Positions 604 to 11,534 of a DNA stretch of 14,437 nucleotides are shown here, one piece after another. Where the stretch lies: NCBI GenBank assembly GCA_022560555.1, contig JADFSZ010000021.1, forward strand, positions 1-14,437, given 5' to 3'. Each line of letters begins with the position of its first letter. Within the stretch, counting starts at the first letter, position 1. Under the pieces are notes generated by a model. The model made no database searches. It worked only from the letters and a program-made list of their open reading frames with translations, and was not told where the DNA came from. The position numbers were made by a program, and so were the translations under genes. The DNA is from PVC group bacterium. GTDB lineage: Bacteria > GCA-001730085 > JADFSZ01.

Positions 604-1023
604 CTACTGCATTTGCCAAAAAGCTCCCGCGTTGTAGAGAAATGTCAAACTGTGCCCTGTCCCGTCACAGGTCATCTGAATGTTCCCATTCGCGGCACCT
701 ACAGCCACATACGTCCCTCCTAAAGGACAAACAGGTGCGACTCTCAAGTAACTTAAAGCTCCGACGGTACCAAACGTTCCGGGCGCCGGGGCCGCATTCC
801 AGTTGATCACCCCTACTCCTGTCAAAGGTAAATCTTCTTCCATAGCAATTCCTTCTATGGCGCTGACAATTTGCCGAAAATTGTTCAAGCATCGGGCATC
901 TCCTGAACGGGCTCGTGACTTGATATAGTTCGGAATGGCTAAGGCCGCAAGGAGGCCGATAATCGCAACAACGATCATAATTTCCACCAAAGTAAACGCC
1001 TTTATATTTTTCATCTTTCGCAT
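604..1023 (-). CDS. Prepilin-type N-terminal cleavage/methylation-domain protein (type IV pilin / T2SS pseudopilin-like), 139 aa
   Basis: MRKMKNIKA|[36 protein letters not shown]..., with Glu+5 and a hydrophobic helix. Cys residues in the C-terminal part (VCPLGG, TCDGTG) are compatible with a pilin disulfide loop. GGAGG at 1028-1032 (reverse strand) sits 4 nt before ATG 1023. The track start at 1038 would put that Shine-Dalgarno inside the CDS and coincide with the predicted sigma-54 transcription start, so 1023 is preferred. Confidence 0.9.
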   Translation of the reverse strand: MRKMKNIKAFTLVEIMIVVAIIGLLAALAIPNYIKSRARSGDARCLNNFRQIVSAIEGIAMEEDLPLTGVGVINWNAAPAPGTFGTVGALSYLRVAPVCPLGGTYVAVGAANGNIQMTCDGTGHSLTFLYNAGAFWQMQ

Positions 1024-1050
1024 GATACCTCCTTGCATGACTTAATTGGC

Positions 1051-1997: not shown

Positions 1998-2100
1998 GAT
2001 TCAGAGAAATCTAAGGATTTTCTTTAGTTATCTTTTGTTCTATCAATTACTTATAGTTCTAACCGAGTTTGACAAAAAGCTAAATGTATGCTTATTTTTG

Positions 2101-2128
2101 TTGACATTTGTCGTTTTTTTGCTACACT
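2101..2128 (+). promoter_or_regulatory. Candidate sigma-70 promoter for the kinase/regulator/TPR operon
   Basis: TTGACA (2101-2106), a 16-nt spacer, then TACACT (2123-2128), about 40 nt upstream of ATG 2169. Sequence match only. The -10 element matches 4 of 6. Confidence 0.35.
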
Positions 2129-2168
2129 TATTAGTTCTCGTTTCACAAAATCAACAACACTCGCACTT

Positions 2169-4286
2169 ATGGTAAAAAAAATCAACATATTAGCTGTCGA
2201 TGAGGATAAAGGGATACAGCAATTTATCTCGGACATACTCACGGATGAAGGCTTTAATGTCCAAACAGCTAATAATGGTCTCGAAGCCCTGGAACGGCTC
2301 AACAAACACACCTTTGATTTCGTCTTAACCGATCTCGACATGCAACATATGAATGGGATGGAACTTTTGGAAGAAATACAATCCAAAAATTGCAAAACAT
2401 GCGTCATCATCATGACCGGGTCCGGCTCCATCACAAGCGCCGTACAAGCCATAAAAAAGGGAGCTTATGACTATTTAACCAAGCCTTTGGATGCCGCATC
2501 CATTCTTGTCACAATCAAAAACGCCCTCAATCAAATGGATCTGGAGAACAAAGACATCCATCTTGAAAGCGAGCTCAAAAAAACACGACACCTTGAATCC
2601 GTCAGTATCGAATTGAGCCGGCAAGTTGATAATTTATTTTACCTGAATTCTTTAACGTCTGCAATCAGCGCATTCACCGATATGTCCGAACTCCAAAATT
2701 TTATCCTGGAAAACTGCAAAAAAATTCTTGGTTCACAACTCGCGTCGATTTTCCTTATGGACGATCAAGATCCGGAATATCTCGTCCTCACAGCCGTCTC
2801 CGGGGAGCACGACCCTTCGGTGATCGGAACACGGCAAAAAGTCGGCCAGGGGATCTCTGGGCGTGTCGCATTAGAAAAGAAACCCCTTCTCGTGCGTGAC
2901 ATTGACAAGGAAGCCTCTCAAATTCAAAAAACATCCCCAAGATACGGATCGAAATCTTTTATGTGTGTGCCCCTTCTTACACAAAATAAATTAATCGGGA
3001 TCATCAACGTAACAAACAAAAAAGACGAAAAATCCTTCACCCCAAGCGACGTAAATCTACTAGCCATTTTAGCGGGGCACGCCGCTAGTGCGATTGCGAA
3101 TATTCGCCATTTTAATTTGCTTGATGATTTAAATAAGAATCTCACAAAACAGATCGATCATGCCACACAAGAACTTGTTCAAAAAAACCAGGACTTGTCA
3201 GCCTTAAAGCAGTACAACGAGAACATTATCAAAAGTCTTTCTATCGGTCTTATTGTTTTTAACAAAAAATTATCCATCACATATGCCAATAACGCCATCA
3301 AAACTTTGCTCAATCTTGAGAAATTTCTTCCTAAAGACTTTGCTATATCCGATTTAGGCTTGTTTGATGCGACAACATGGAATACTGTTTATCACCAGGT
3401 CATTCATAAGCAAACGACGAAACGTATAGGGCATTATGAATACACCCAAAAAAACCGCAACCCTCTTTACCTCGATTTTATCATCAGCCCTTTTTTCGAC
3501 GAAAAAGGCGAGCTGATCGGCGGGATTCTTGTTGTCAATAATGTCACGGAACAGATCATAATCGAGCAAAAACTGGCCCACTCTGAACGGCTCGCGATTG
3601 TCGGAAAACTCGCGGCAAAAGTGGCTCACGAGCTGAATAATCCTTTAGACGGAATTTTACGATTCGTCAACCTGACCCTCTCTAAAATTCCCAAAGACAC
3701 CTCTAACGAAGAGATACTGGACTACTTAAACGAGTCAAAAGCCGGACTGATTCGCATGGCGCAAATTATCAGTTCGCTCCTTGAATTTTCACGCGGCATG
3801 CAGCCGTCAAGCGAAAAAAACCAAATCAATGAAACAATCCGGGACGCTGTTAAGGCAATGAGCCCCACGGCCATGAGCCATAATATACGCATCATTACTC
3901 AACTAAGCGATGGGCTTCCAAAGGTTTTAACCGGAAATCTTTTTCAAGTGTTAACCAACTTAATTAAAAACGCCATAGATTCAATCGATAAAAACGGGAC
4001 GGTTACAATTCGAACAAGTTCGGCACAGGATGATATCCTCCTTGAGATTCAGGATACAGGCAAAGGCATTCCGGCTCATATTCTCAAACAAATTTTTGAT
4101 CCATTTTTTACCACAAAACCCAAGGGGAAGGGAAGCGGTCTCGGCTTATCCATTTGCATGGGAATCATTGAAAAGTGCCGCGGAAAAATAGAAGTAAAGA
4201 GCATTGAAAACGAAGGAACAACATTCACGATCATTTTGCCCGCGGATCATGCGGGAGTTCAAACACTAAAATCAGGAGTAAACTAA
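2169..4286 (+). CDS. Soluble hybrid sensor histidine kinase, REC-GAF-PAS-HisKA-HATPase_c
   Basis: Receiver: INILAVDED...VLTDLDM...IIMTGSGS...YLTKP. GAF-like block: GQGISGRVALEKKPLLVRD ... CVPLLTQNKLIGIINV. PAS-like block around SIGLIVFNKKLSITYANNA. H-box VAHELNNPL, N-box LTNLIKNAIDS, G1 DTGKGI, F FDPFFTTK, G2 GSGLGLSI. No hydrophobic transmembrane segments. Start moved to ATG 2169 (MVKKINILAVDED) because the track extension 2088-2168 overlaps the candidate promoter and reads as non-protein-like sequence. Confidence 0.9.
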   Translation: MVKKINILAVDEDKGIQQFISDILTDEGFNVQTANNGLEALERLNKHTFDFVLTDLDMQHMNGMELLEEIQSKNCKTCVIIMTGSGSITSAVQAIKKGAYDYLTKPLDAASILVTIKNALNQMDLENKDIHLESELKKTRHLESVSIELSRQVDNLFYLNSLTSAISAFTDMSELQNFILENCKKILGSQLASIFLMDDQDPEYLVLTAVSGEHDPSVIGTRQKVGQGISGRVALEKKPLLVRDIDKEASQIQKTSPRYGSKSFMCVPLLTQNKLIGIINVTNKKDEKSFTPSDVNLLAILAGHAASAIANIRHFNLLDDLNKNLTKQIDHATQELVQKNQDLSALKQYNENIIKSLSIGLIVFNKKLSITYANNAIKTLLNLEKFLPKDFAISDLGLFDATTWNTVYHQVIHKQTTKRIGHYEYTQKNRNPLYLDFIISPFFDEKGELIGGILVVNNVTEQIIIEQKLAHSERLAIVGKLAAKVAHELNNPLDGILRFVNLTLSKIPKDTSNEEILDYLNESKAGLIRMAQIISSLLEFSRGMQPSSEKNQINETIRDAVKAMSPTAMSHNIRIITQLSDGLPKVLTGNLFQVLTNLIKNAIDSIDKNGTVTIRTSSAQDDILLEIQDTGKGIPAHILKQIFDPFFTTKPKGKGSGLGLSICMGIIEKCRGKIEVKSIENEGTTFTIILPADHAGVQTLKSGVN

Positions 4287-4288
4287 AC

Positions 4289-5677
4289 ATGCATAAAAAT
4301 AAAATTCTCATAGTCGATGATGATTTGATTATCAGGAAATCTTTGGCAGCTATGCTGAATGAAGAGAACTACGAAACCCAAGTTGCCGCCGATAGTCACG
4401 AAGCTCTGGAGCACCTTAAAAACACCCAAATAGATCTTATTTTGTCAGACATCAGCATGCCGGGAATGTCCGGGATTGATCTCTTAAAGGAAGTTAAAAA
4501 GTTTCATTCACACGTTATCGTGATCTTGATCACGGGTTATGGAACGATTGAAAATGCCGTTGAGTCTATAAAATACGGAGCGTATGACTATATCACGAAA
4601 CCGCTTCTGGATGAGCAGGTCAAAGTGGTGATACAGCGATCTTTAGAACAACAAGCTCTCAAAAACGAAAACGAAAAATTAAAAGAACAAATTCTACAAA
4701 TCAGCGAATCGGGAGACTCCCTGCTTTTGGGCCAGGATTACAAATTCCAAAAGATTCTCGAACTGGTTCATACCGTGGCTGATTCCAACGCCACCATTCT
4801 TATTACCGGGGAAAGCGGAACCGGAAAATCAATGATCGCAAGATCCATTCATAAATTTTCCGGACGGGCAAGTCAGCCCTTTGTTGAAGTCAGCTGCGGG
4901 ATGCTCTCGGAAACTCTTCTTGAATCCGAGCTTTTCGGCCACGTCAAAGGATCCTTTACAGGGGCTCTCAATGACAAACTTGGCAAGTTTTCCATGGCAG
5001 ACAAAGGAACCATTTTTCTGGATGAAATTGCCGTAGCCTCCCCGGCGTTACAACTAAAGCTCCTTAGAGTTCTGCAGGATCAAAAATTTGAAAGTGTCGG
5101 GGGCACAGAAACTATTGAAGTAGACACACGCGTGGTCGCGGCAACCAACCACGACCTTCAAAAGGAAGTCCACGAAAATAGATTTCGCAAAGATCTCTTT
5201 TACCGGCTCAATGTGATATCCATTCATATCCCTCCCCTGCGTGAACGTATAACAGACGTCAAAATTCTTGCCCACCATTTTCTCGAAAAATTTTGCAAGC
5301 AGAACAATAAAGATATTCATGAATTTTCACCTGATGCTATGACGGAGCTTCATAATTATACATGGCCGGGAAATATCCGTGAGCTTGAGAACGTTGTTGA
5401 GCGTGCTGTTGTTCTTTGCAAAGAAAAGATAATCACCCAAAGCTATCTCTCCATCGTTAAAGAAACAAACTTAACGGACACTCTTTTGTCCTCAACCGAC
5501 AACATCAAATCCCTCGAAGACTCTCTCGCCGGACCTGAAAGGAAAATTATCAAAATGGCGCTGGACAAAAATCATTGGAACCGTCAAGGTACGGCCCATA
5601 TGCTCGGAATAAACCGCACTACTTTGTTTCATAAAATGAAAAAATACAATCTCCATAAAAACCAGGGGGACATATGA
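4289..5677 (+). CDS. prsR: Sigma-54-dependent response regulator / enhancer-binding protein (NtrC/AtoC family; PrsR-like)
   Basis: REC: ILIVDDD...ILSDISMPG...ILITGYG...YITKP. AAA+ sigma-54 interaction domain: Walker A GESGTGKS, ESELFGH, GAFTGA-type loop GSFTGA, Walker B GTIFLDEI, RFRKDLFYRL. C-terminal Fis-type HTH: NRQGTAHMLGINRTTLFHKMKKY. It starts 2 nt after the kinase stop. The symbol is assigned from context (adjacent PrsT-like lipoprotein, exosortase locus), not from a search. Confidence 0.93.
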   Translation: MHKNKILIVDDDLIIRKSLAAMLNEENYETQVAADSHEALEHLKNTQIDLILSDISMPGMSGIDLLKEVKKFHSHVIVILITGYGTIENAVESIKYGAYDYITKPLLDEQVKVVIQRSLEQQALKNENEKLKEQILQISESGDSLLLGQDYKFQKILELVHTVADSNATILITGESGTGKSMIARSIHKFSGRASQPFVEVSCGMLSETLLESELFGHVKGSFTGALNDKLGKFSMADKGTIFLDEIAVASPALQLKLLRVLQDQKFESVGGTETIEVDTRVVAATNHDLQKEVHENRFRKDLFYRLNVISIHIPPLRERITDVKILAHHFLEKFCKQNNKDIHEFSPDAMTELHNYTWPGNIRELENVVERAVVLCKEKIITQSYLSIVKETNLTDTLLSSTDNIKSLEDSLAGPERKIIKMALDKNHWNRQGTAHMLGINRTTLFHKMKKYNLHKNQGDI

Positions 5678-8652
5678 AAATCCGAATTCCGGCACGGATC
5701 AATCAAAAAACATTTATTTTGATACTCACCGGTCTTTTATGTTTTTCAGGGTGCTCGAAAAAAGCAAGCGGGTCCTTCAAAAGTCACATGGAAACAGGAA
5801 GAATTTATGCGAAAATTAAAAAATACAGTGAAGCGATTAGAGAGTACAAGTCAGCCCTTCTGCTCAGGCCCGAGTCCGCTGAAATCCTCTTTCTCATCGG
5901 CCAAGCGTTTCGAAACACCAACGACTTCACTGAAGCTCAAGAATATCTGGAAAAATGCTTAGAGTTAAGTCCCAGTCACTCCTTGGCCACACTTGAGCTG
6001 GGTTATTGCCACTTAGCCAAGGGGGAATCTGAAATGGCATCAGAAAGGGCTCTGCTGGTTATCCAAAACAATCCGGACAACGCGGATGCTTACATACTTT
6101 TAGGTCAAATCAACTTAAAACTTCAAAACAGCGGGGAGGCTACTAAATATTTCCAAAAGGCCGTGTCAATGTCCCCTCAACTCATCGATCCCCGACTCAG
6201 CCTGATTCGTTTGCATTCACTTGAACTTGATTACGACAAGGCTACTAAAGAAGCCTTGGCCATCATCAATGATATCGACAAGGAAAATCTCCAAGCCCGA
6301 TTTCTTCTCGCGGACATTTATGCCCTTCAGGAAAATTTTGAAGAGGCCTATAAAGTGGTTAATAAAATCCTGGAATTAGCGCCGGATAACCTTATGGCTC
6401 ATTTCAGCAAAGCCAACATGGCTTTCTTTCAAAAAAAATATGATACAGCTTTAGAAATTTCCGAAGAAATTCTCAGGAAAAATAGAAATTACATCCCCGC
6501 ATCCTACCTTAAAGGGAATATTTATTTTGAAAAGCAAGAATTTGATGAGGCTATCGTTATTTACCAACGTATCATTTCATCGAAACCTGATTGGTCAGAG
6601 GCGCATTTGCGTCTCGCTATCGCGTTGGCTAACACGGGGCAGATGCAGCAGGCTATTCGTGAATTCCGTCAAACATTAAACACAAATCCACAAAATATCC
6701 AAGCAGGATACTTTCTCACAAAGATATATCTTCAAAACAGCTGGCATGACGAGGCAGTAAGTTTAACAAAGGACTTGCTCGAATATTATCCGGACAATAC
6801 CAAACTTCTACGAACTCTCGCCATGACTTATATTGCCATGGGCCGTATTGATCAAGCTCAAGCCGTTTTTAAAGACATCATAGAGATTGATCCGGATTTT
6901 TCCAAAGGCTTTCTTAATCTTGCCGTTCTCGAACTTACGCAGAAAAATTCCGCAAGCGCTATTGACAACGCCAAAAAAGCAATTGATCGGGACCAAAATA
7001 ATCTCGGAGCCTATAATGTCTTGGGACTTGCCTATCTGCAGTCCGGGGATTCTCAACTTGCCATTGAAACTTTTAAAATCGCAAAGAATATCGACCCGGA
7101 TTTTATTCCTGCTTATATAAATTTAGCGCGCATCTACATCGCTCTGCGCGATTATAATTCAGCCAATGCCGAATACAAAGATGTCCTCAATCAAAATCCG
7201 AATGCCATCGAGGCTCTTTTCGGACTCGCCCTTATGAGCGAAAAGAATAGGGAATTTGATACAGCCATCAAAACCTACAACCAAATTCTTAAGATCAATC
7301 CGGACGCAGCTAACGCTCATTTCAAGCTTGCCACCCTTCACCATGAACGGAAACATCTCTCAGAAGCCCAAAGGCACCTTAAAGAGGTCACGAGAATAAT
7401 CCCGACAAACAATTATGCGCGCATGCTGCTTTCAAGCATTTACCTAAAGGAAAATCAGATTCCTCTCATGAAAGAACAGCTGGAGAGCATCATTCAAAAC
7501 GATCCAAATAATCAGACCGCTTTCATTCAATTGGGGCTCGCACATCTTTATCAGGGAAATATTGAGAACGCCGTTCAAGCTTTTCTTACAGCGGGACAAA
7601 ACCTTGGTAATCCCTACCAGGGACAAATTGACCAAGCCCTTGCCTGGCTTTCTTACATGCAAAATGATCTGGAAGCATCTCTTGATTTTAGTGAAAAAGC
7701 CATCCGTCGCCTCACTGACAAAGTTTATCCGGCCATCGTTAAAGCCAATATCCTTATGCTCAATGATCAGACGGACGAAGCCGTTAGTGAAATTTCTAAA
7801 AGCACAAGTATTTTACCCATGGATAAGGACTATTACTTGAAGTTTGCCGATCATTTAAAAGATCTCCCTCAAAATCAATCAAAAATTTTGGTGGCGACCA
7901 ACAATGCCATTACTTTTGCTTCATTTCAATGGTATGACCTCGCAACATCCAAATATCGGGAAGCTCTTGCTCTTGCGCCGGAACAACCTTTCCTTAAAAA
8001 AATGCTCGCGACAATCCTTGCCCTCACCGACAAAACAGATGAAGCTCTCAGTCTTTACAAGGATCTGTTATCCAGCGGTGAAACACCCCAGCTCCACCAA
8101 AATATCGGCAATATTTATATGACCCACGCGCTTCCGGCTAAAGCTATTCTTCATTTTAAAAAGGCCATCGAGCTCGCGCCGGACAACGCATCCGCGTGGA
8201 TGCAACTTGGCATGGTGTATGAGACTCAAAATGACCCGAAAAATGCGCTAGCTAGCTATGAGGAAGTCATTGAACTCGCCCCTAAAAATTCGGCCGCCCT
8301 CAATAATGCGGCTTGGCTTCTCGCGACAGACAATATTGATCTCGATAAAGCTTTGGAGCACGCGCTCGCGGCAGAAAGCTTCTCAAAAACGGAAGGAAGT
8401 ATTAAAGACACCCTTGGATGGGTTTATTATCTTAAAGGGGAAATGAGACGGGCCGAAAACAAAATGATCGAAGCTATTGAGCTTATGCCTGACCATCCTT
8501 CTCTTCATTACCACTTAGGAGCCATCCTTCATCATAAAGGCGATCTCAAAACCGCACGTCAAGAGTTAAATACCGCTTTGGGGATGGGGACCGATTTTGC
8601 CGACTACGATAAAGCCCTCGAGTTGATCAAGAGGATTGATCAGGCTCTCTGA
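5674..8652 (+). CDS. prsT: Large TPR-repeat lipoprotein (PEP-CTERM system PrsT-like)
   Basis: Lipoprotein signal MKIRIPARINQKTFILILTGLLCFSG|C. More than 20 TPR-like 34-aa repeats run throughout (recurring A..Y/F..AL...P.N..A patterns). Its ATG overlaps the regulator stop (ATGA at 5674-5677), and GGGGGA lies 4 nt upstream. The size and TPR-lipoprotein architecture next to a sigma-54 regulator match the described PrsT family. Confidence 0.88.
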   Translation: MKIRIPARINQKTFILILTGLLCFSGCSKKASGSFKSHMETGRIYAKIKKYSEAIREYKSALLLRPESAEILFLIGQAFRNTNDFTEAQEYLEKCLELSPSHSLATLELGYCHLAKGESEMASERALLVIQNNPDNADAYILLGQINLKLQNSGEATKYFQKAVSMSPQLIDPRLSLIRLHSLELDYDKATKEALAIINDIDKENLQARFLLADIYALQENFEEAYKVVNKILELAPDNLMAHFSKANMAFFQKKYDTALEISEEILRKNRNYIPASYLKGNIYFEKQEFDEAIVIYQRIISSKPDWSEAHLRLAIALANTGQMQQAIREFRQTLNTNPQNIQAGYFLTKIYLQNSWHDEAVSLTKDLLEYYPDNTKLLRTLAMTYIAMGRIDQAQAVFKDIIEIDPDFSKGFLNLAVLELTQKNSASAIDNAKKAIDRDQNNLGAYNVLGLAYLQSGDSQLAIETFKIAKNIDPDFIPAYINLARIYIALRDYNSANAEYKDVLNQNPNAIEALFGLALMSEKNREFDTAIKTYNQILKINPDAANAHFKLATLHHERKHLSEAQRHLKEVTRIIPTNNYARMLLSSIYLKENQIPLMKEQLESIIQNDPNNQTAFIQLGLAHLYQGNIENAVQAFLTAGQNLGNPYQGQIDQALAWLSYMQNDLEASLDFSEKAIRRLTDKVYPAIVKANILMLNDQTDEAVSEISKSTSILPMDKDYYLKFADHLKDLPQNQSKILVATNNAITFASFQWYDLATSKYREALALAPEQPFLKKMLATILALTDKTDEALSLYKDLLSSGETPQLHQNIGNIYMTHALPAKAILHFKKAIELAPDNASAWMQLGMVYETQNDPKNALASYEEVIELAPKNSAALNNAAWLLATDNIDLDKALEHALAAESFSKTEGSIKDTLGWVYYLKGEMRRAENKMIEAIELMPDHPSLHYHLGAILHHKGDLKTARQELNTALGMGTDFADYDKALELIKRIDQAL

Positions 8653-8659
8653 TCTTCTT

Positions 8660-8977
8660 TTAATCCTGATTGACAAGCTCTTCGATTTGATTTCGATGAG
8701 AATACTGCATGCCCTGAAACTGAATCCCGATTTTATACTGTTCGCCATATGGCATACTCGCGACCCAGGCTACACAAGTCATAAGCTTTACAGGATATTC
8801 AGAAAAATCAAAGGCAATGGTCATCGGAATTTTTAAGGATTTTGCCAAAAAATGATTGGCAATAAAACAGAGTCCGCCCACACTAAGGTCTTGGGTAAGC
8901 ACACCATGGACGACACTATCCAATTGATATTTGACGGGAATTTTGACGGGTTTTCTTAGGGCTTGACGTCTTTCCAT
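8660..8977 (-). CDS. Stand-alone PilZ-domain protein (predicted c-di-GMP receptor), 105 aa
   Basis: Both PilZ signature motifs are present: RRQALR (RxxxR) near the N-terminus and DLSVGG (D/NxSxxG) about 25 residues later. GAGGT lies upstream of ATG 8977. Confidence 0.85.
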   Translation of the reverse strand: MERRQALRKPVKIPVKYQLDSVVHGVLTQDLSVGGLCFIANHFLAKSLKIPMTIAFDFSEYPVKLMTCVAWVASMPYGEQYKIGIQFQGMQYSHRNQIEELVNQD

Positions 8978-9056: not shown

Positions 9057-9791
9057 TTACACTCTCTGTGATGCAATTTTATTGTTTTTTCTTGAAAAAA
9101 CTTTTAATTTTCTCATTTTTTTATTCTTGCTAAACAGTCGATCTCCAAGAATCATTTTTAAACATGTTCTAATAGCAATCAAAAAATCCGTAAACCAACC
9201 GGCGCGCTTGATATAGGCCAGATCATACGTTAATTTATTCCTCGCGTCATCAAGAGTCTCATCGGCCTTTTGAAGCACCTGTGCCAGCCCCGTGATCCCG
9301 GGTTTAATCTGCATACGCTTCTGATAATCAGGCAAATCACGGGTTAATTTATTCACAAAGAACGGCCGCTCAGGCCGGGGTCCGATAATGCTCATGTCCC
9401 CAATGAGCACATTGTATAGCTGAGGCAATTCATCCAAATGAGATTTTCTGAGAAATTGGCCGAACTTTGTTATCCTAGGATCCTCCCCTACCGATGCCCA
9501 CACGGGGCCAGTTTTTTCTTCAGCGTCTAGGCGCATGCTCCTGAGCTTGTAAATGTGAAAGATCTCGCCATCCAATCCAACACGCTCCTGAGAATAAAAG
9601 GCGGCCCCGGGGCTTGTCTTTCTCACAATGAAAGCCAGAAGAAACGTCATCGGAACCGTTAACGGGAGCGTCAGAACAACAACCGCAATATCAACCGCCC
9701 GCTTGACATTCGCAAATTGCACCCGGACGTATCGAATGAGGATTCCGCCCAATCCGCTTGAAATTAATATAATGCTGCTTGGTTCCGGCAT
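9057..9791 (-). CDS. Small (monotopic-type) phosphoglycosyl transferase / bacterial sugar transferase (PF02397-like, polyprenyl-phosphate hexose-1-phosphate transferase)
   Basis: KRAVDIAVVVLTLPLTVPMTFLLAFIVRKTSPGAAFYSQERVGLDGEIFHIYKLRSM ... DELPQLYNVLIGDMSIIGPRPERP ... KPGITGLAQV: the canonical sugar-transferase core. AAGGGAA Shine-Dalgarno at 9797-9803 (reverse strand), 5 nt before ATG 9791. It also carries an unusual N-terminal PEP-TM extension and a basic C-terminal tail (see findings). Confidence 0.93.
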   Translation of the reverse strand: MPEPSSIILISSGLGGILIRYVRVQFANVKRAVDIAVVVLTLPLTVPMTFLLAFIVRKTSPGAAFYSQERVGLDGEIFHIYKLRSMRLDAEEKTGPVWASVGEDPRITKFGQFLRKSHLDELPQLYNVLIGDMSIIGPRPERPFFVNKLTRDLPDYQKRMQIKPGITGLAQVLQKADETLDDARNKLTYDLAYIKRAGWFTDFLIAIRTCLKMILGDRLFSKNKKMRKLKVFSRKNNKIASQRV

Positions 9792-9799
9792 GATCTTTC

Positions 9800-9941
9800 C
9801 CTTAAAATGGATTTTTTCCTTAAAACAGCTTTGTTATTAAAATGCTTTTTTATTGATTGAAATATTTTTCATTAAAAATAATTTGTCCTTAAAAAAGCTT
9901 TTTCATTAAAACAATTTATCCTTAAAAAAGAATTCTTAAAT
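9800..9941. repeat. Degenerate ~17-bp tandem repeat array (about 9 units, with a ~34-bp higher-order unit)
   Basis: Plus-strand units begin with CCTTAAAA at 9800, 9818, 9887 and 9920. Related variants are TATTAAAA at 9835, GATTGAAA at 9855, CATTAAAA at 9870 and 9904, and TCTTAAAT at 9934. Each is followed by 3-5 nt and a T tract. CCTTAAAAAAG is identical at 9887 and 9920. The array fills the gap between the PilZ stop (9922) and the sugar-transferase start (9791). Confidence 0.6.
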
Positions 9942-10314
9942 CTTCATCAAAACTCACGGCTATGCCCACTTTACGGGTCATGACATCGTTTTCTTGATCC
10001 TCCTCAACAACATCAGTAACTCTTACCACTTTGGCAACAGCTTCTAATTTTGGACTCTTGAAAACGTTATTCAGCCCAAACGAGTTCAGGCTCTCCGGAG
10101 TATCAAAAACGATCTTCAGCTTCATGTCCGGTTTGATTCGGGTATCTGAAATGGATTCAAAATACGCCCCGCCTGTGCTTACATTACGCGTTTTGGCAAA
10201 ATTGATAGAGCAATCACGCGTATCCTCTTCGAGAATTTCAAATGCAATCGGCAGATTCAAATCAAGCCTTCGGTATTTACGACGATCCTTTTCACTGGGT
10301 TTAGAATCAATCAT
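9922..10314 (-). CDS. Stand-alone PilZ-domain protein (predicted c-di-GMP receptor), 130 aa
   Basis: RRKYRR (RxxxR) followed by NVSTGG (D/NxSxxG) at the expected spacing. It is the first gene downstream of the sigma-54 promoter at 10409-10424. Confidence 0.85.
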   Translation of the reverse strand: MIDSKPSEKDRRKYRRLDLNLPIAFEILEEDTRDCSINFAKTRNVSTGGAYFESISDTRIKPDMKLKIVFDTPESLNSFGLNNVFKSPKLEAVAKVVRVTDVVEEDQENDVMTRKVGIAVSFDEDLRILF

Positions 10315-10408
10315 TCCCCATGTTCCTTTCCGATTCCCCTTCTGACACCCCCTACTACTTTTTCAGTCTATACTCATATGCTTTGCTTCTAATATTAGCT
10401 CATTCTAG

Positions 10409-10424
10409 TGCAATGATTATGCCA
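10409..10424 (-). promoter_or_regulatory. Sigma-54 (-24/-12) promoter for the PilZ / sugar transferase unit
   Basis: The reverse strand reads TGGCATAATCATTGCA, preceded by T, with canonical GG/GC spacing and a TTGCA -12 box. The site is intergenic, about 95 nt upstream of ATG 10314. Confidence 0.65.
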
Positions 10425-10480
10425 ACTCTGTATGGTGCTCTGATCAAGTTGAATTATCTATAATCTTTTATTTATAAGTA

Positions 10481-10513
10481 CTTTACAATATGCTAAAAAT
10501 TGTCGTAAAATCA
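10481..10513 (-). promoter_or_regulatory. Conserved upstream element (candidate enhancer/UAS), copy B
   Basis: Plus-strand CTTTACAATATGCTAAAAATTGTCGTAAAATCA, 26/33 identical to 428-460, with the same ACAAT-N9-ATTGT inverted repeat. It lies 56 nt upstream of the -24 element at 10424. Confidence 0.4.
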
Positions 10514-10670
10514 GATATACACTCTGAGTATGTTCACTTTAATGAACGTAGTGACTCCAAATATGGGTACAAATCATAGACATGACACTGCTTATATGTA
10601 AAATAGACCTCGTTTGATTTATTTAACATTTGTTGGCAGGGGCCTCCAAACTATAAGAAATACAAGCCTC

Positions 10671-11534
10671 TTAGGAAGTGTTTTTTGTCGCCATTAATGG
10701 GCGTAGCCACTTAATCCCTAAAAGGGATTCAAAGAAAAATAACAGAAGATACGCCACCCCAAAAATAAGGAGTCCCGAAAAGTCATGAAAAAAACCTGTC
10801 GCGGCCTCGACCCCCCAACGATTGGCAATGAGACAAAGAAGAACAATCCGTGCGACATTGGCAATAATGGCCGTAGGAAAGGACACAAAAAATATCAGGA
10901 TTTTTTTTAGTCCTGTCCCACGCGCTAAATAAGCAACAATGGCCCCTAAAGCTAGAAGGGAGATAAGAGACCGTAATCCGCTACACACGTTACCAACGGT
11001 TATCGAGGCATTCATAAAATGAATATGACTCCCATCCTGAACGCAGTAAACCCCCAATGTTCTTACCATACTTACGGCACAATCTGCCGCGAACATTTTG
11101 AGTTCCAGATTAAGCTTCGCAATAACATCAAGCGGCATGGGGATCATAAAAAACAGAAAAAGAACCGGGAAGAGAAGCTTCTTAACGACTCGCGGGGAAT
11201 AAAAAAACAATAAAGCTCCAAAAATCAGCAAGAGAAATGCCAAGGCCTGGGTAAAATAAATTCTCCACACGGCACTCATAATCTGGAGCACAAAAGCACT
11301 GCCCATAAATATCCAAGCCCAAAATGCGGGATTTTCTGTACTTATTTCTCGCAGCAAATGCTTTTTTTTCCAGACGATAAATCCGGAAACAAACGGAATA
11401 AGAAACCCATGAGAATAGTAGGAATCCGGAGCCGTCCAACGATCGACCATCCAGGAAAACGTCGGCAAAAAAATAACCGCGATAAGTGCCGAAAACCACA
11501 GCCCCGTTAAGATGCTTGTTCTTGAGAAAGTCAT
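10671..11534 (-). CDS. Exosortase (EpsH/Xrt family polytopic membrane transpeptidase), compact 287-aa form
   Basis: Polytopic hydrophobic protein carrying the exosortase signature residues: DSYYSHGFLIP near the N-terminus, catalytic-type Cys in VGNVCSGLRSLISL, Arg in IANVARIV, and His in FHDFSG. Subtype (XrtA or other) cannot be assigned by eye. Confidence 0.9.
   Translation of the reverse strand: MTFSRTSILTGLWFSALIAVIFLPTFSWMVDRWTAPDSYYSHGFLIPFVSGFIVWKKKHLLREISTENPAFWAWIFMGSAFVLQIMSAVWRIYFTQALAFLLLIFGALLFFYSPRVVKKLLFPVLFLFFMIPMPLDVIAKLNLELKMFAADCAVSMVRTLGVYCVQDGSHIHFMNASITVGNVCSGLRSLISLLALGAIVAYLARGTGLKKILIFFVSFPTAIIANVARIVLLCLIANRWGVEAATGFFHDFSGLLIFGVAYLLLFFFESLLGIKWLRPLMATKNTS

Follow-up and report, generated by a model that had tools for sequence, protein, structure and literature searches.

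Why should an enzyme that places the first sugar of a polysaccharide begin with the sorting signal of an exosortase cargo protein? The question is raised by a gene in a 14,437-nucleotide stretch of DNA from a PVC group bacterium (contig JADFSZ010000021.1), hereafter the window, which encodes a small PglC-like polyprenyl-phosphate phosphoglycosyl transferase of 244 residues with an N-terminal PEP module (positions 9057..9791, minus strand). The translation opens MPEPSSIILISSGLGGILIRYVRVQFANVKRAVDIAVVVLTLPLTVPMTFLLAFIVRK..., in agreement with the preliminary description of this DNA, which recognized in it the tripartite layout of a PEP-CTERM signal. We propose that the module is a relocated helix for recognition by exosortase, through which the priming enzyme is tethered to the XrtA-like exosortase encoded nearby. 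We give this reading a probability of about 0.5; that the two proteins bind, that cleavage occurs and that activity is affected are inferences.

The enzyme domain of the protein is matched by PF02397 at 195.1 bits (gathering score 27) and by the NCBIfam model TIGR03025 at 259.8 bits. Its AF2 model has a mean pLDDT of 88, and Foldseek aligns it with PglC (8g1n/8e37) and WbaP (8t53) at E values of 1e-13 to 1e-11, with a TM score by target of 0.72-0.76 for the PglC structures. The predicted re-entrant membrane helix comprises residues 32-58 (9618..9698, minus strand), where D34 is invariant, P47 is at least 90% conserved and the fold matches that of PglC, and it is followed by the catalytic domain (9141..9617, minus strand), whose D120-E121 dyad and GPRPERP motif lie in PF02397 and in invariant columns of alignment A1. 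Judged by the invariant DE dyad and the PglC fold, the transferase looks enzymatically active. The PglC of Campylobacter, to which it is 35-36% identical, shares the re-entrant helix with its conserved Pro, the Asp-Glu dyad and the fold, and the nearest named relatives are proteins of Omnitrophota (40-54% identity). However, PglC starts only a few residues ahead of the re-entrant helix, whereas the window protein does not begin at that helix as its single membrane element: residues 5-19, an extra predicted membrane-spanning helix, come first with a periplasmic PEP in front, so that the protein would be bitopic plus re-entrant. A further comparison is with the large, WbaP-like glycosyltransferases of XrtA/PEP-CTERM systems (EpsB_2, TIGR03013), which have the same catalytic domain and a common role with the window transferase as priming enzymes of exosortase-linked polysaccharide loci. 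TIGR03013 is the second-best NCBIfam match (231.9 bits, far under its cutoff of 393.35) with an alignment confined to model positions 253-436 of 443, and in place of the multi-helix N-terminal region of those proteins the window transferase has one PEP-CTERM-type helix. The sole large exosortase-linked transferase seen in this analysis, in locus L007, is without a PEP motif.

The module itself comprises residues 1-31, MPEPSSIILISSGLGGILIRYVRVQFANVKR (9699..9791, minus strand; positions 9717-9791 are codons 1-25), and is laid out as MPEP, a 15-residue Gly-containing helix (S5-I19) and a basic stretch, the same order of PEP, Gly-containing hydrophobic helix of about 15 residues and basic residues that defines the PEP-CTERM domain of exosortase cargo (TIGR02595/PF07589). 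The PEP motif is encoded by codons 2-4 (9780..9788, minus strand), the predicted transmembrane helix with G13 and G16 by 9735..9779 (minus strand; AF2 helix from residue 4, pLDDT 86-91), and the basic linker of residues 20-31, which was read from the sequence (R20, R23, K30 and R31, of which R23, K30 and R31 are at least 90% conserved), by 9699..9734 (minus strand). The predicted N-out/C-in orientation is set by this linker. Since PF02397 is confined to residues 30-214, residues 1-29 form an additional N-terminal module before the KR..D motif and re-entrant helix, an extra element as had been suggested. TIGR02595 aligns with residues 2-20, bearing out the proposed HMM similarity, at 16.0 bits on the whole protein, which equals its cutoff of 16, and, when residues 1-31 are scored by themselves, at 21.9 bits (E 2e-4); PF07589 gives 13.8 bits on the whole protein and 18.2 bits on the module alone, and neither value reaches the gathering score, 20.7. 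Compared with that of cargo, the basic cluster is weaker and more dispersed (R..R, not RRKK). It should be noted that the PEP-CTERM domain of cargo ends within about ten residues of the C-terminus, with a median of 3 residues after it in canonical tails, whereas here the module is residues 1-31 of 244 and is followed by about 213 residues of cytoplasmic enzyme, so that by position the protein is no canonical PEP-CTERM member. The window protein, which begins M-PEP, also has neither the signal peptide nor the secreted domain that are both present in its long relatives and in the full cargo fusions.

The reality of the module depends on where translation begins. No start codon lies between the in-frame stop and ATG 9791, which is preceded by the Shine-Dalgarno-like sequence AAGGGAAAG. 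L174 and L175, the two closest relatives whose DNA could be compared, have AGGAGG or AAGGA ahead of the equivalent ATG, and their sequence further upstream is unrelated. Over codons 1-20, 12 synonymous and 4 non-synonymous changes separate the window from L174. The GTG at 9722 (codon 24), which the preliminary description named as the start that would undo its reading, is AGC in both relatives, and we reject it on that ground together with the synonymous excess upstream of it and the Shine-Dalgarno motifs before the ATG. The comparison indicates that ATG 9791 is the real start.

Conservation of the module extends through the family. In 109 of the 120 best homologues, from Omnitrophota, Planctomycetota and Brocadiia, a PEP stands exactly 58 residues ahead of the S.GP motif, which confirms the conservation in orthologues on which the first reading depended. 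Among sequences of only about 50% identity, P2, E3, P4, G13 and G16 show conservation of at least 90%; for the PEP residues this holds in A1 and A2, and they are invariant in A3. Rare variants of the motif are PEA, LEP, VEP and PQP. The family, counted at E ≤ 1e-10, comprises at least 79 clusters (50% identity); among the best 150, the full module is present in at least 44. Among 78 distinct family modules, 62 are matched by TIGR02595 at E ≤ 0.01, and all other NCBIfam families that match more than one module are PEP-CTERM protein families. The transferase modules and 31 genuine cargo tails of related loci have a common register, with T/S at PEP+5, L at PEP+8 and Gly at PEP+12 and PEP+15 (97% and 93% in the transferase modules, 90% and 81% in the cargo tails), and basic residues begin at PEP+19 in the window transferase and at PEP+20 in the tails. 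The BLOSUM score of modules against cargo tails is 22.6, compared with -7.3 against shuffled tails. A chance resemblance to PEP-CTERM is ruled out by the conservation across the family and the HMM matches. The conserved P2, E3, P4, G13 and G16 and the 12 versus 4 codon changes point to purifying selection on the module and, as far as sequence can tell, residues ~1-31 of the window transferase constitute a genuine domain of the PEP-CTERM type, the kind that exosortases recognize. Atypically placed PEP-CTERM copies have been regarded as probably non-functional (Haft 2006, PMC1569441); unlike those copies, the window-type module is strongly conserved.

Homologous transferases form a graded series, from proteins that start at MPEP, such as that of the window, through those with a signal peptide and a linker of 7-77 residues before an internal PEP module, to those with a full secreted cargo domain before the PEP. 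Among the 120 closest homologues roughly half have the exact M-PEP start, as do 13 of about 44 module-bearing representative clusters. The placement of the signal at the N-terminus, as first described, therefore applies to the window gene with its M-PEP start and does not extend to those relatives in which the module is internal, after a signal peptide and linker or a cargo domain. At the far end of the series, P0254 has a choice-of-anchor N domain (53.8 bits, cutoff 40), then PEP-CTERM, then the transferase, and P0287 has a PKD domain in the same place. In P0271 and P0266 the order is likewise cargo-like domain, PEP-CTERM and transferase, and the domain is 39% and 28% identical (E 1e-41 and 7e-20), respectively, to stand-alone cargo proteins encoded beside PEP-transferases. 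PF07589 scores above its gathering threshold in P0254, P0266 and P0271. From the full cargo fusions we argue that at least some family members are true exosortase substrates.

The window module is also encoded near genes for an exosortase, PrsT and a PrsR-like sigma-54 regulator. The exosortase (287 residues; 10671..11534, minus strand; PF09721, 209.8 bits) lies 879 bp upstream of the transferase on the same strand, matching the roughly 880 bp first given, with a PilZ-domain gene between them. It passes the general exosortase model TIGR02602 (156.8 bits, cutoff 105.55), has the TIGR04178 signature (65.8 bits) and is 40-48% identical to its closest named relatives, from Omnitrophota. PrsT, the TPR protein of XrtA/PEP-CTERM systems, is encoded at 5674..8652 on the plus strand (TIGR02917, 400.8 bits, cutoff 312.2). 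These two models of the XrtA/PEP-CTERM locus are over their cutoffs, and those for XrtA itself (TIGR03109; 180.1 bits, cutoff 208) and PrsR (414 versus 503) are under them. No PrsK-type kinase, EpsI or cargo gene is present in the 14.4-kb window, and a search of all six frames found no canonical PEP-CTERM cargo ORF, as had been noted. Linkage was assessed with 12 PEP-type loci ascertained through the transferase and, as controls, 156 loci with non-PEP transferases, mostly ordinary large ones, among the matches listed in genome and metagenome scans. An exosortase is encoded within 10 kb in 8 of the 12 PEP-type loci and in 6 of the 156 controls (Fisher p 1e-7), so that the suspected association with exosortases holds at the level of the locus, and a canonical cargo gene, usually the very next gene, is found in 9 of 12 versus 1 of 156 (p 9e-12). 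When loci were ascertained from exosortases instead, the order Xrt-EpsI-PEP-transferase-cargo was seen in all three Omnitrophota loci. Four PEP-type loci (L001, L085, L088 and L089) have no exosortase within 10 kb, and L088 and L089 are also without a cargo gene.

We now put forward a hypothetical mechanism for the window protein. In the predicted topology the MPEP N-terminus faces the periplasm, residues 5-19 cross the inner membrane and the basic stretch from R20 to R31 lies in the cytoplasm, leading straight into the re-entrant helix and catalytic domain. We propose that the PEP and the GxxG helix bind the site for cargo tails on the neighbouring XrtA-like exosortase, and that this binding would hold at the exosortase the enzyme that initiates the locus polysaccharide by making its first lipid-linked sugar. 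Because nothing lies upstream of the PEP in the window gene, its module would serve for docking or as a pseudo-substrate, not as a releasable signal, and the minimal M-PEP form, with nothing to release, fits the docking idea first put forward for this gene. Nevertheless, an extreme N-terminal PEP, with nothing before it, may be ill-suited to a site that evolved for an internal motif. This counts against docking, as do the subthreshold Pfam score and the weaker basic cluster of the window module, the four PEP-type loci with no exosortase within 10 kb and the missing co-variation signal with own-locus cargo tails described below. In relatives with a signal peptide or cargo domain, cleavage of the module by the exosortase is probable and would free the periplasmic part and leave the helix-anchored transferase behind.

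The foremost alternative, which we consider rather unlikely, is that the module is a true cleaved substrate: a cut by the exosortase at or near the PEP would mature, activate or inactivate the transferase and couple priming one-to-one to the processing of cargo, the window M-PEP form being trimmed by a few residues or representing a “pre-processed” version. The relatives with an AxA-site signal peptide and periplasmic stub, or a whole cargo domain, before the PEP have the layout of a substrate, three of them exceed the PF07589 threshold as described above, and the short forms resemble what would remain after cleavage. However, the M-PEP starters release nothing and yet keep the PEP under strong selection, and a mere cleavage motif should decay when nothing is freed.

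It is unlikely, in our assessment, that the module is only a membrane anchor, a relic left behind when the 3' end of a cargo gene recombined with the 5' end of the adjacent transferase gene, and kept as a stabilizing helix with no exosortase contact. Such an origin would suit the cargo genes that adjoin the transferase and the unrelated cargo domains fused at one junction, which point to recombination at the PEP-coding segment, and a helix without an exosortase partner is consistent with the four of 12 loci that lack a nearby exosortase. The comparison of modules with the cargo tails of their own loci leans the same way: the modules are no closer to own-locus than to other-locus tails (permutation p 0.28-0.33, n=7 loci), and thus give no co-variation signal of shared recognition. 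An anchor, however, needs neither an invariant periplasmic Pro-Glu-Pro nor Gly at two fixed positions of the helix, and the PEP and Gly residues are kept as strongly as many near-invariant catalytic positions, at about 50% divergence and across three phylum-level groups. Moreover, PglC and other small transferases do without an extra helix, and the linkage to exosortase and cargo is far over the control rate.

A more speculative possibility, which we consider unlikely, is that the exosortase reaction has the priming transferase as an integral participant, with the PEP helix of the transferase occupying the substrate site and the lipid-linked glycan that it initiates serving as the long-sought acceptor for cargo. 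The glycan would then be made, and after flipping presented, at the sorting enzyme, and in the cargo-PEP-transferase fusions a single cleavage would free one cargo and leave or license one transferase. If true, this would explain why exosortase systems always lie inside exopolysaccharide loci and would name a candidate acceptor pathway. In the sortase/LPXTG and PorU/T9SS systems we know of no biosynthetic enzyme that bears the sorting signal itself, unlike the window transferase. Both systems transfer cargo to a lipid-linked glycan, which is lipid II in the case of sortase and the A-LPS linking sugar in the case of PorU (PMC7468200), and the exosortase locus may follow a similar logic, with the sorting enzyme functionally coupled to the pathway for a lipid-linked sugar acceptor.

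Two further explanations can be set aside more firmly. That a Met-free Pro-Glu-Pro helix resembles the leaving group of the sorting reaction, and fills the leaving-group site or attacks the acyl-enzyme so as to modulate or reverse sorting, is highly improbable: Pro at position 2 allows removal of the Met by methionine aminopeptidase, the short forms start exactly M-PEP in many divergent lineages and exosortases are suspected transpeptidases, but the long forms have no free PEP N-terminus. Least credible is an annotation artefact in which the PEP-like stretch is an untranslated leader with a chance likeness, since the PglC-like N-terminus that a GTG start would give (six residues ahead of KR) and the subthreshold Pfam score of the window module are outweighed by the start-codon evidence above, the fixed distance of the module across the homologues and its place inside the open reading frame of the long forms.

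Our preferred reading, in which an exosortase-recognition helix holds the priming enzyme at the exosortase, bears on a long-standing feature of these systems. To our knowledge the C-terminal placement of the signal and the constant location of exosortase systems in exopolysaccharide clusters have not been connected mechanistically since 2006, and a full-text literature search found no mention of a PEP-CTERM/transferase fusion, in line with the earlier impression that the arrangement is undescribed. A sorting signal fused to the very enzyme that initiates polysaccharide synthesis, and conserved family-wide, suggests that the sorting of proteins and the making of polysaccharide may be physically connected; in the PEP-transferases, the portion that an exosortase normally discards is the enzyme. 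The fusion offers a testable handle both on a complex of exosortase and polysaccharide machinery and on exosortase recognition, with natural constructs for such work supplied by the graded series from full cargo through stub to no stub. Annotation rules that demand a C-terminal domain will miss or misname these proteins.

The PilZ-domain gene between exosortase and transferase (130 residues; 9922..10314, minus strand; PF07238, 24.0 bits) is matched by an orthologue at the equivalent site of L174 and L175; in L085, too, a PilZ-like protein is encoded upstream of the transferase. A second PilZ-domain gene (105 residues; 8660..8977, minus strand; PF07238, 44.9 bits) lies directly downstream, again at a position conserved in L174 and L175. 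The PrsR-like, sigma-54-dependent response regulator is encoded at 4289..5677 on the plus strand (TIGR02915, 414 bits, cutoff 502.6; its best match is an AtoC-type model) and adjoins a hybrid sensor histidine kinase (receiver-GAF-PAS-HisKA; 2088..4286, plus strand), which matches NCBIfam histidine-kinase models and has no match to TIGR02916 (PrsK). The 130-bp AT-rich gap directly upstream of the window transferase contains no sigma-54-type site. One promoter-like site of this type, TGGCATAATCATTGCA (10409..10424, minus strand), is an exact match to TGGCAYN5TTGCW, of which 0.06 are expected per window, and by this consensus match alone precedes the PilZ-transferase-PilZ gene run. By the same kind of consensus match, 8 related loci have candidate sigma-54-type sites at a distance of 35-150 nt ahead of the transferase, compared with 1 control locus.

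The first 31 residues of the window's transferase (9699-9791, minus strand; the module) are a conserved PEP-CTERM-type domain, set in the register of a cargo signal and linked to exosortase genes and genes for cargo, that is, PEP-CTERM-tailed secreted proteins. The ORF (9057-9791, minus strand; 244 residues, translation starting MPEPSSIILISSGLGGILIRYVRVQFANVKRAVD) encodes a small monotopic phosphoglycosyl transferase, apparently active, with about 29 additional N-terminal residues, since Bac_transf (PF02397) matches residues 30-214 at 195 bits, the AlphaFold2 model (36 family members as input, mean pLDDT 88) resembles Campylobacter PglC (8g1n and 8e37, E 1e-13, 35-36% identity) and also the WbaP core (8t53), and the Asp-Glu dyad (D120-E121), the GPRPERP motif and the re-entrant-helix proline (P47) are kept in the family. 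Its top NCBIfam models, the polyprenyl glycosylphosphotransferase families TIGR03025 and TIGR03013, align only to the C-terminal catalytic half and score below their full-length cutoffs. The protein differs from small phosphoglycosyl transferases in having more than their single membrane element. Omnitrophota are the nearest named relatives of both this enzyme and the window exosortase (40-54% identity).

By the sequence evidence, translation begins at ATG 9791, the first start codon past the in-frame stop, which is preceded by AAGGGAAAG. In the two closest relatives with DNA obtained (L174 and L175, 74-75% protein identity), the equivalent ATG is preceded by AGGAGG or AAGGA, and the DNA upstream bears no relation to that of the window. 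Of codons 1-20, 16 are not the same in the window and L174, and in 12 of these the change is synonymous. The GTG at 9722, which the preliminary description had held open as the true start, is AGC in both relatives and, with 12 of 16 codon changes synonymous upstream of it, is ruled out. On these grounds the extension is translated and under purifying selection.

The same description had read the extension as an extra PEP-CTERM-like signal ahead of the re-entrant helix, and profile matches, family conservation and cargo-tail register bear this out. TIGR02595, the NCBIfam PEP-CTERM model, aligns to residues 2-20 and scores exactly its curated cutoff of 16.0 bits on the entire protein and 21.9 bits on residues 1-31, while PF07589 of Pfam stays below its gathering score of 20.7 (13.8 bits for the whole protein, 18.2 for the module). 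The window gene by itself would give a borderline call, and it is the family evidence that decides. Among 78 distinct 31-residue modules, 62 match TIGR02595 at E ≤ 0.01, and the other families matched by more than one module are all PEP-CTERM protein families. A position-wise comparison set 75 transferase modules against 31 true cargo tails of the fetched loci: both had T/S at PEP+5 and L at PEP+8, with Gly at PEP+12 (97% of modules, 90% of tails) and PEP+15 (93% and 81%) and the first basic residue at a median of +19 and +20, respectively. The mean BLOSUM score of module against tail is 22.6, versus -7.3 with shuffled tails, so the likeness is positional rather than compositional. By its place in the protein, the window module falls outside the PEP-CTERM domain family. 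The 2006 description of the domain (PMC1569441) suggests that long-tailed copies may be non-functional.

Orthologues conserve the extension: PEP lies exactly 58 residues ahead of the S.GP catalytic-core motif in 109 of the 120 best homologues (≥48% identity), the source-named members of which are Omnitrophota or Planctomycetota, family size and phyletic range both being lower bounds. The other 11 are mostly truncated gene calls or PEA, VEP and PQP variants. Conservation reaches 90% or more at P2, E3, P4, G13 and G16, though overall identity is only about 50%. Variants with exosortase and cargo genes still adjacent occur in otherwise typical members (LEP in L092 and L093, PEA in P0102 and L173, VEP in P0112, PQP in P0108 and P0113) and may be usable as a natural mutational series. 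As had been supposed, the architecture is, as far as we found, undescribed: full-text literature on PEP-CTERM or exosortase with sugar or phosphoglycosyl transferases, or on Omnitrophota, yielded no account of it. It is visible in databases, some entries of which already hold both Pfam domains, and is best filed as assembled from known parts.

The N-terminal placement stands for the window and other proteins starting M-PEP, about half of the close homologues, and does not extend to the remainder, in which (A/V)PEP comes after a typical signal peptide, complete with AxA site, and a linker of 10-60 residues, and the module is internal. A profile built from the module and the re-entrant helix, searched against 1.84 billion representatives, gave at least 79 clusters at E ≤ 1e-10. 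In at least 44 of the best 150 matches, the start of the transferase comes after the module; upstream of PEP there is nothing in 13, 7-77 residues in 25 and 134-265 in at least six. The window's form is one end of a spectrum, at the other end of which stand entire secreted-protein domains, such as a choice-of-anchor N domain in P0254 (NF038141, 53.8 bits, cutoff 40) and a PKD domain in P0287. All the way from its signal peptide to PEP, the upstream domain of P0271 (39% identity, E 1e-41) and P0266 (28%, E 7e-20) aligns with free-standing cargo proteins encoded beside PEP-transferases of other loci; this cargo family has about 77 members that are stand-alone PEP-CTERM proteins, whereas its transferase fusions number only four. 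The fusions at the PEP junction show that the module and the PEP-CTERM domains of cargo are homologous. On more than one occasion it has been joined to an unrelated cargo body, for which recombination between the PEP-coding stretches of adjacent genes would be the simplest route.

In Omnitrophota-type loci, glycosyltransferases are followed by an exosortase, EpsI and the PEP-transferase, in that order, and then by one to five cargo genes and the genes for a TPR protein, a kinase and a sigma-54 regulator. Twelve distinct PEP-type loci, all ascertained via the transferase and counting the window and two LEP variants among them, were compared with 156 loci with ordinary transferases at a radius of 10 kb. 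An exosortase lies within reach in 8/12 against 6/156 (Fisher p 1e-7) and a canonical cargo gene in 9/12 against 1/156 (p 9e-12), a contrast that is indicative, not exact, because the controls are from other phyla and on somewhat shorter contigs; ten of the twelve have one or the other. Co-occurrence with exosortases, anticipated earlier, therefore holds at the level of loci. From three Omnitrophota exosortases as starting point, all three loci had a PEP-type (or PEA) transferase, then cargo. Linkage is looser for the Planctomycetota and Brocadiia short forms, and no exosortase was found within 10 kb in L001, L085, L088 and L089. The next gene in L001 and L085 is a cargo gene, and L088 adjoins a deacetylase with DUF3473 (PF11959) and an AMP-binding enzyme, both kinds often exosortase-associated. 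EpsI follows the exosortase, directly or a few genes on, in 7/7 Omnitrophota loci (L081, L083, L087, L090, L171-L173); it is absent from the window, its position being occupied by a 356-bp non-coding gap (10315-10670) and a PilZ gene.

What the module does can be proposed from these data. In the window protein, Lys and Arg are absent ahead of the helix and number four after it, a charge distribution from which we infer that the N-terminus is outside and the enzyme inside, the orientation of canonical PEP-CTERM proteins and one that fits the cytoplasmic start of the re-entrant helix in PglC. We propose, at a probability of roughly 0.5, that the exosortase recognises PEP and the GxxG helix, and that this recognition tethers the priming enzyme to it. 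With nothing upstream of PEP, the window's module would act as a dock or pseudo-substrate; in stub- and cargo-bearing relatives it would probably be cleaved, leaving the same helix-anchored enzyme. Such cleavage could itself be the regulatory event, which we consider possible but unlikely. Somewhat more doubtful is that the helix, left by recombination, is now a mere anchor, a view consonant with the fusions but one that poorly explains why a periplasmic tripeptide is invariant and two glycines are fixed. A role as acceptor or product mimic is improbable, and an annotation artefact, given the conserved ATG, scarcely credible. Transferase modules and cargo tails of the same locus showed no co-variation (p ~0.3, n = 7), which counts against all interaction models, tethering to the exosortase included.

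Promoter-like sigma-54-type (-24/-12) sites precede the PEP-transferase gene in many loci, as sequence matches: TGGCAYG-N5-TGCT occurs exactly, 35-150 nt upstream, in eight related loci (e.g., L001, L083, L087, L090, L171-L173) and before the transferase of only one other fetched locus. The window's 130-bp gap before the transferase contains only AT-rich repeats and no such site; one (TGGCATAATCATTGCA, 10409-10424, minus strand) lies about 95 nt upstream of the PilZ gene ahead of the transferase, against 0.06 such sites expected per window. A second exact match lies within the exosortase gene (11227-11242). The window also encodes a sigma-54-dependent regulator (4289-5677) and PrsT (5674-8652). 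The repeats, five copies of TTTTCCTTAAAA / TTTTCATTAAAA at 16-17 nt spacing (9797-9930), are a lineage-specific insertion, since the gap between PilZ gene and transferase is only 35 nt in L174 and 15 nt in L175, without repeats. A small PilZ-domain gene lies on either side of the transferase (9922-10314 before it and 8660-8977 after it, both on the minus strand), an order kept in L174 and L175, and the Planctomycetota locus L085 has a PilZ-like protein ahead of its PEP-transferase, which suggests c-di-GMP control of priming.

Several further features were observed. The periplasmic stub of one long subfamily (P0029, P0076, P0084, P0097, P0117, P0120, L171) opens with a conserved A-(T/N)-(V/I)-S-(F/L)-(V/I)-K-P-(Q/D)-D-A just past the predicted signal-peptide cleavage site, suggesting that the stub itself serves some function. 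Cargo-fused and some stub-bearing transferases (P0254, P0255, P0266, P0271, P0272, P0291) share an Arg/Lys-rich insertion of 20-35 residues past the first beta-hairpin of the catalytic domain (e.g., VGEDRRRSGERKKVKKCKEERRK), which the window transferase lacks. A conserved small leader ORF, recognisable by the motif E-(V/I)-D-x-(Y/F)-L-x-I-(R/Q)-R-Y, directly precedes the transferase as a separate 38-aa ORF in L081 (9880-9996), in frame with one stop codon between in L087 (~9911-10000), and fused in frame at the N-termini of P0019 and L091; the motif is absent from the window's clade. Predicted polyproteins (P0242, 2500 aa; P0295, 1011 aa; P0288; P0292) string together 4-10 full units of signal peptide, domain and PEP-CTERM without stop codons, each basic cluster being joined directly to the signal peptide that follows. 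Either genuine tandem fusions or errors of gene calling, e.g., from a wrong genetic code, could account for them. At the edge of the window's exosortase locus lies a type IV pilin or T2SS pseudopilin-like gene with an N-terminal methylation motif (604-1038, minus strand), with a one-mismatch sigma-54-type site just upstream (1050-1065) and a GT2 glycosyltransferase gene beside it (1089-1997).
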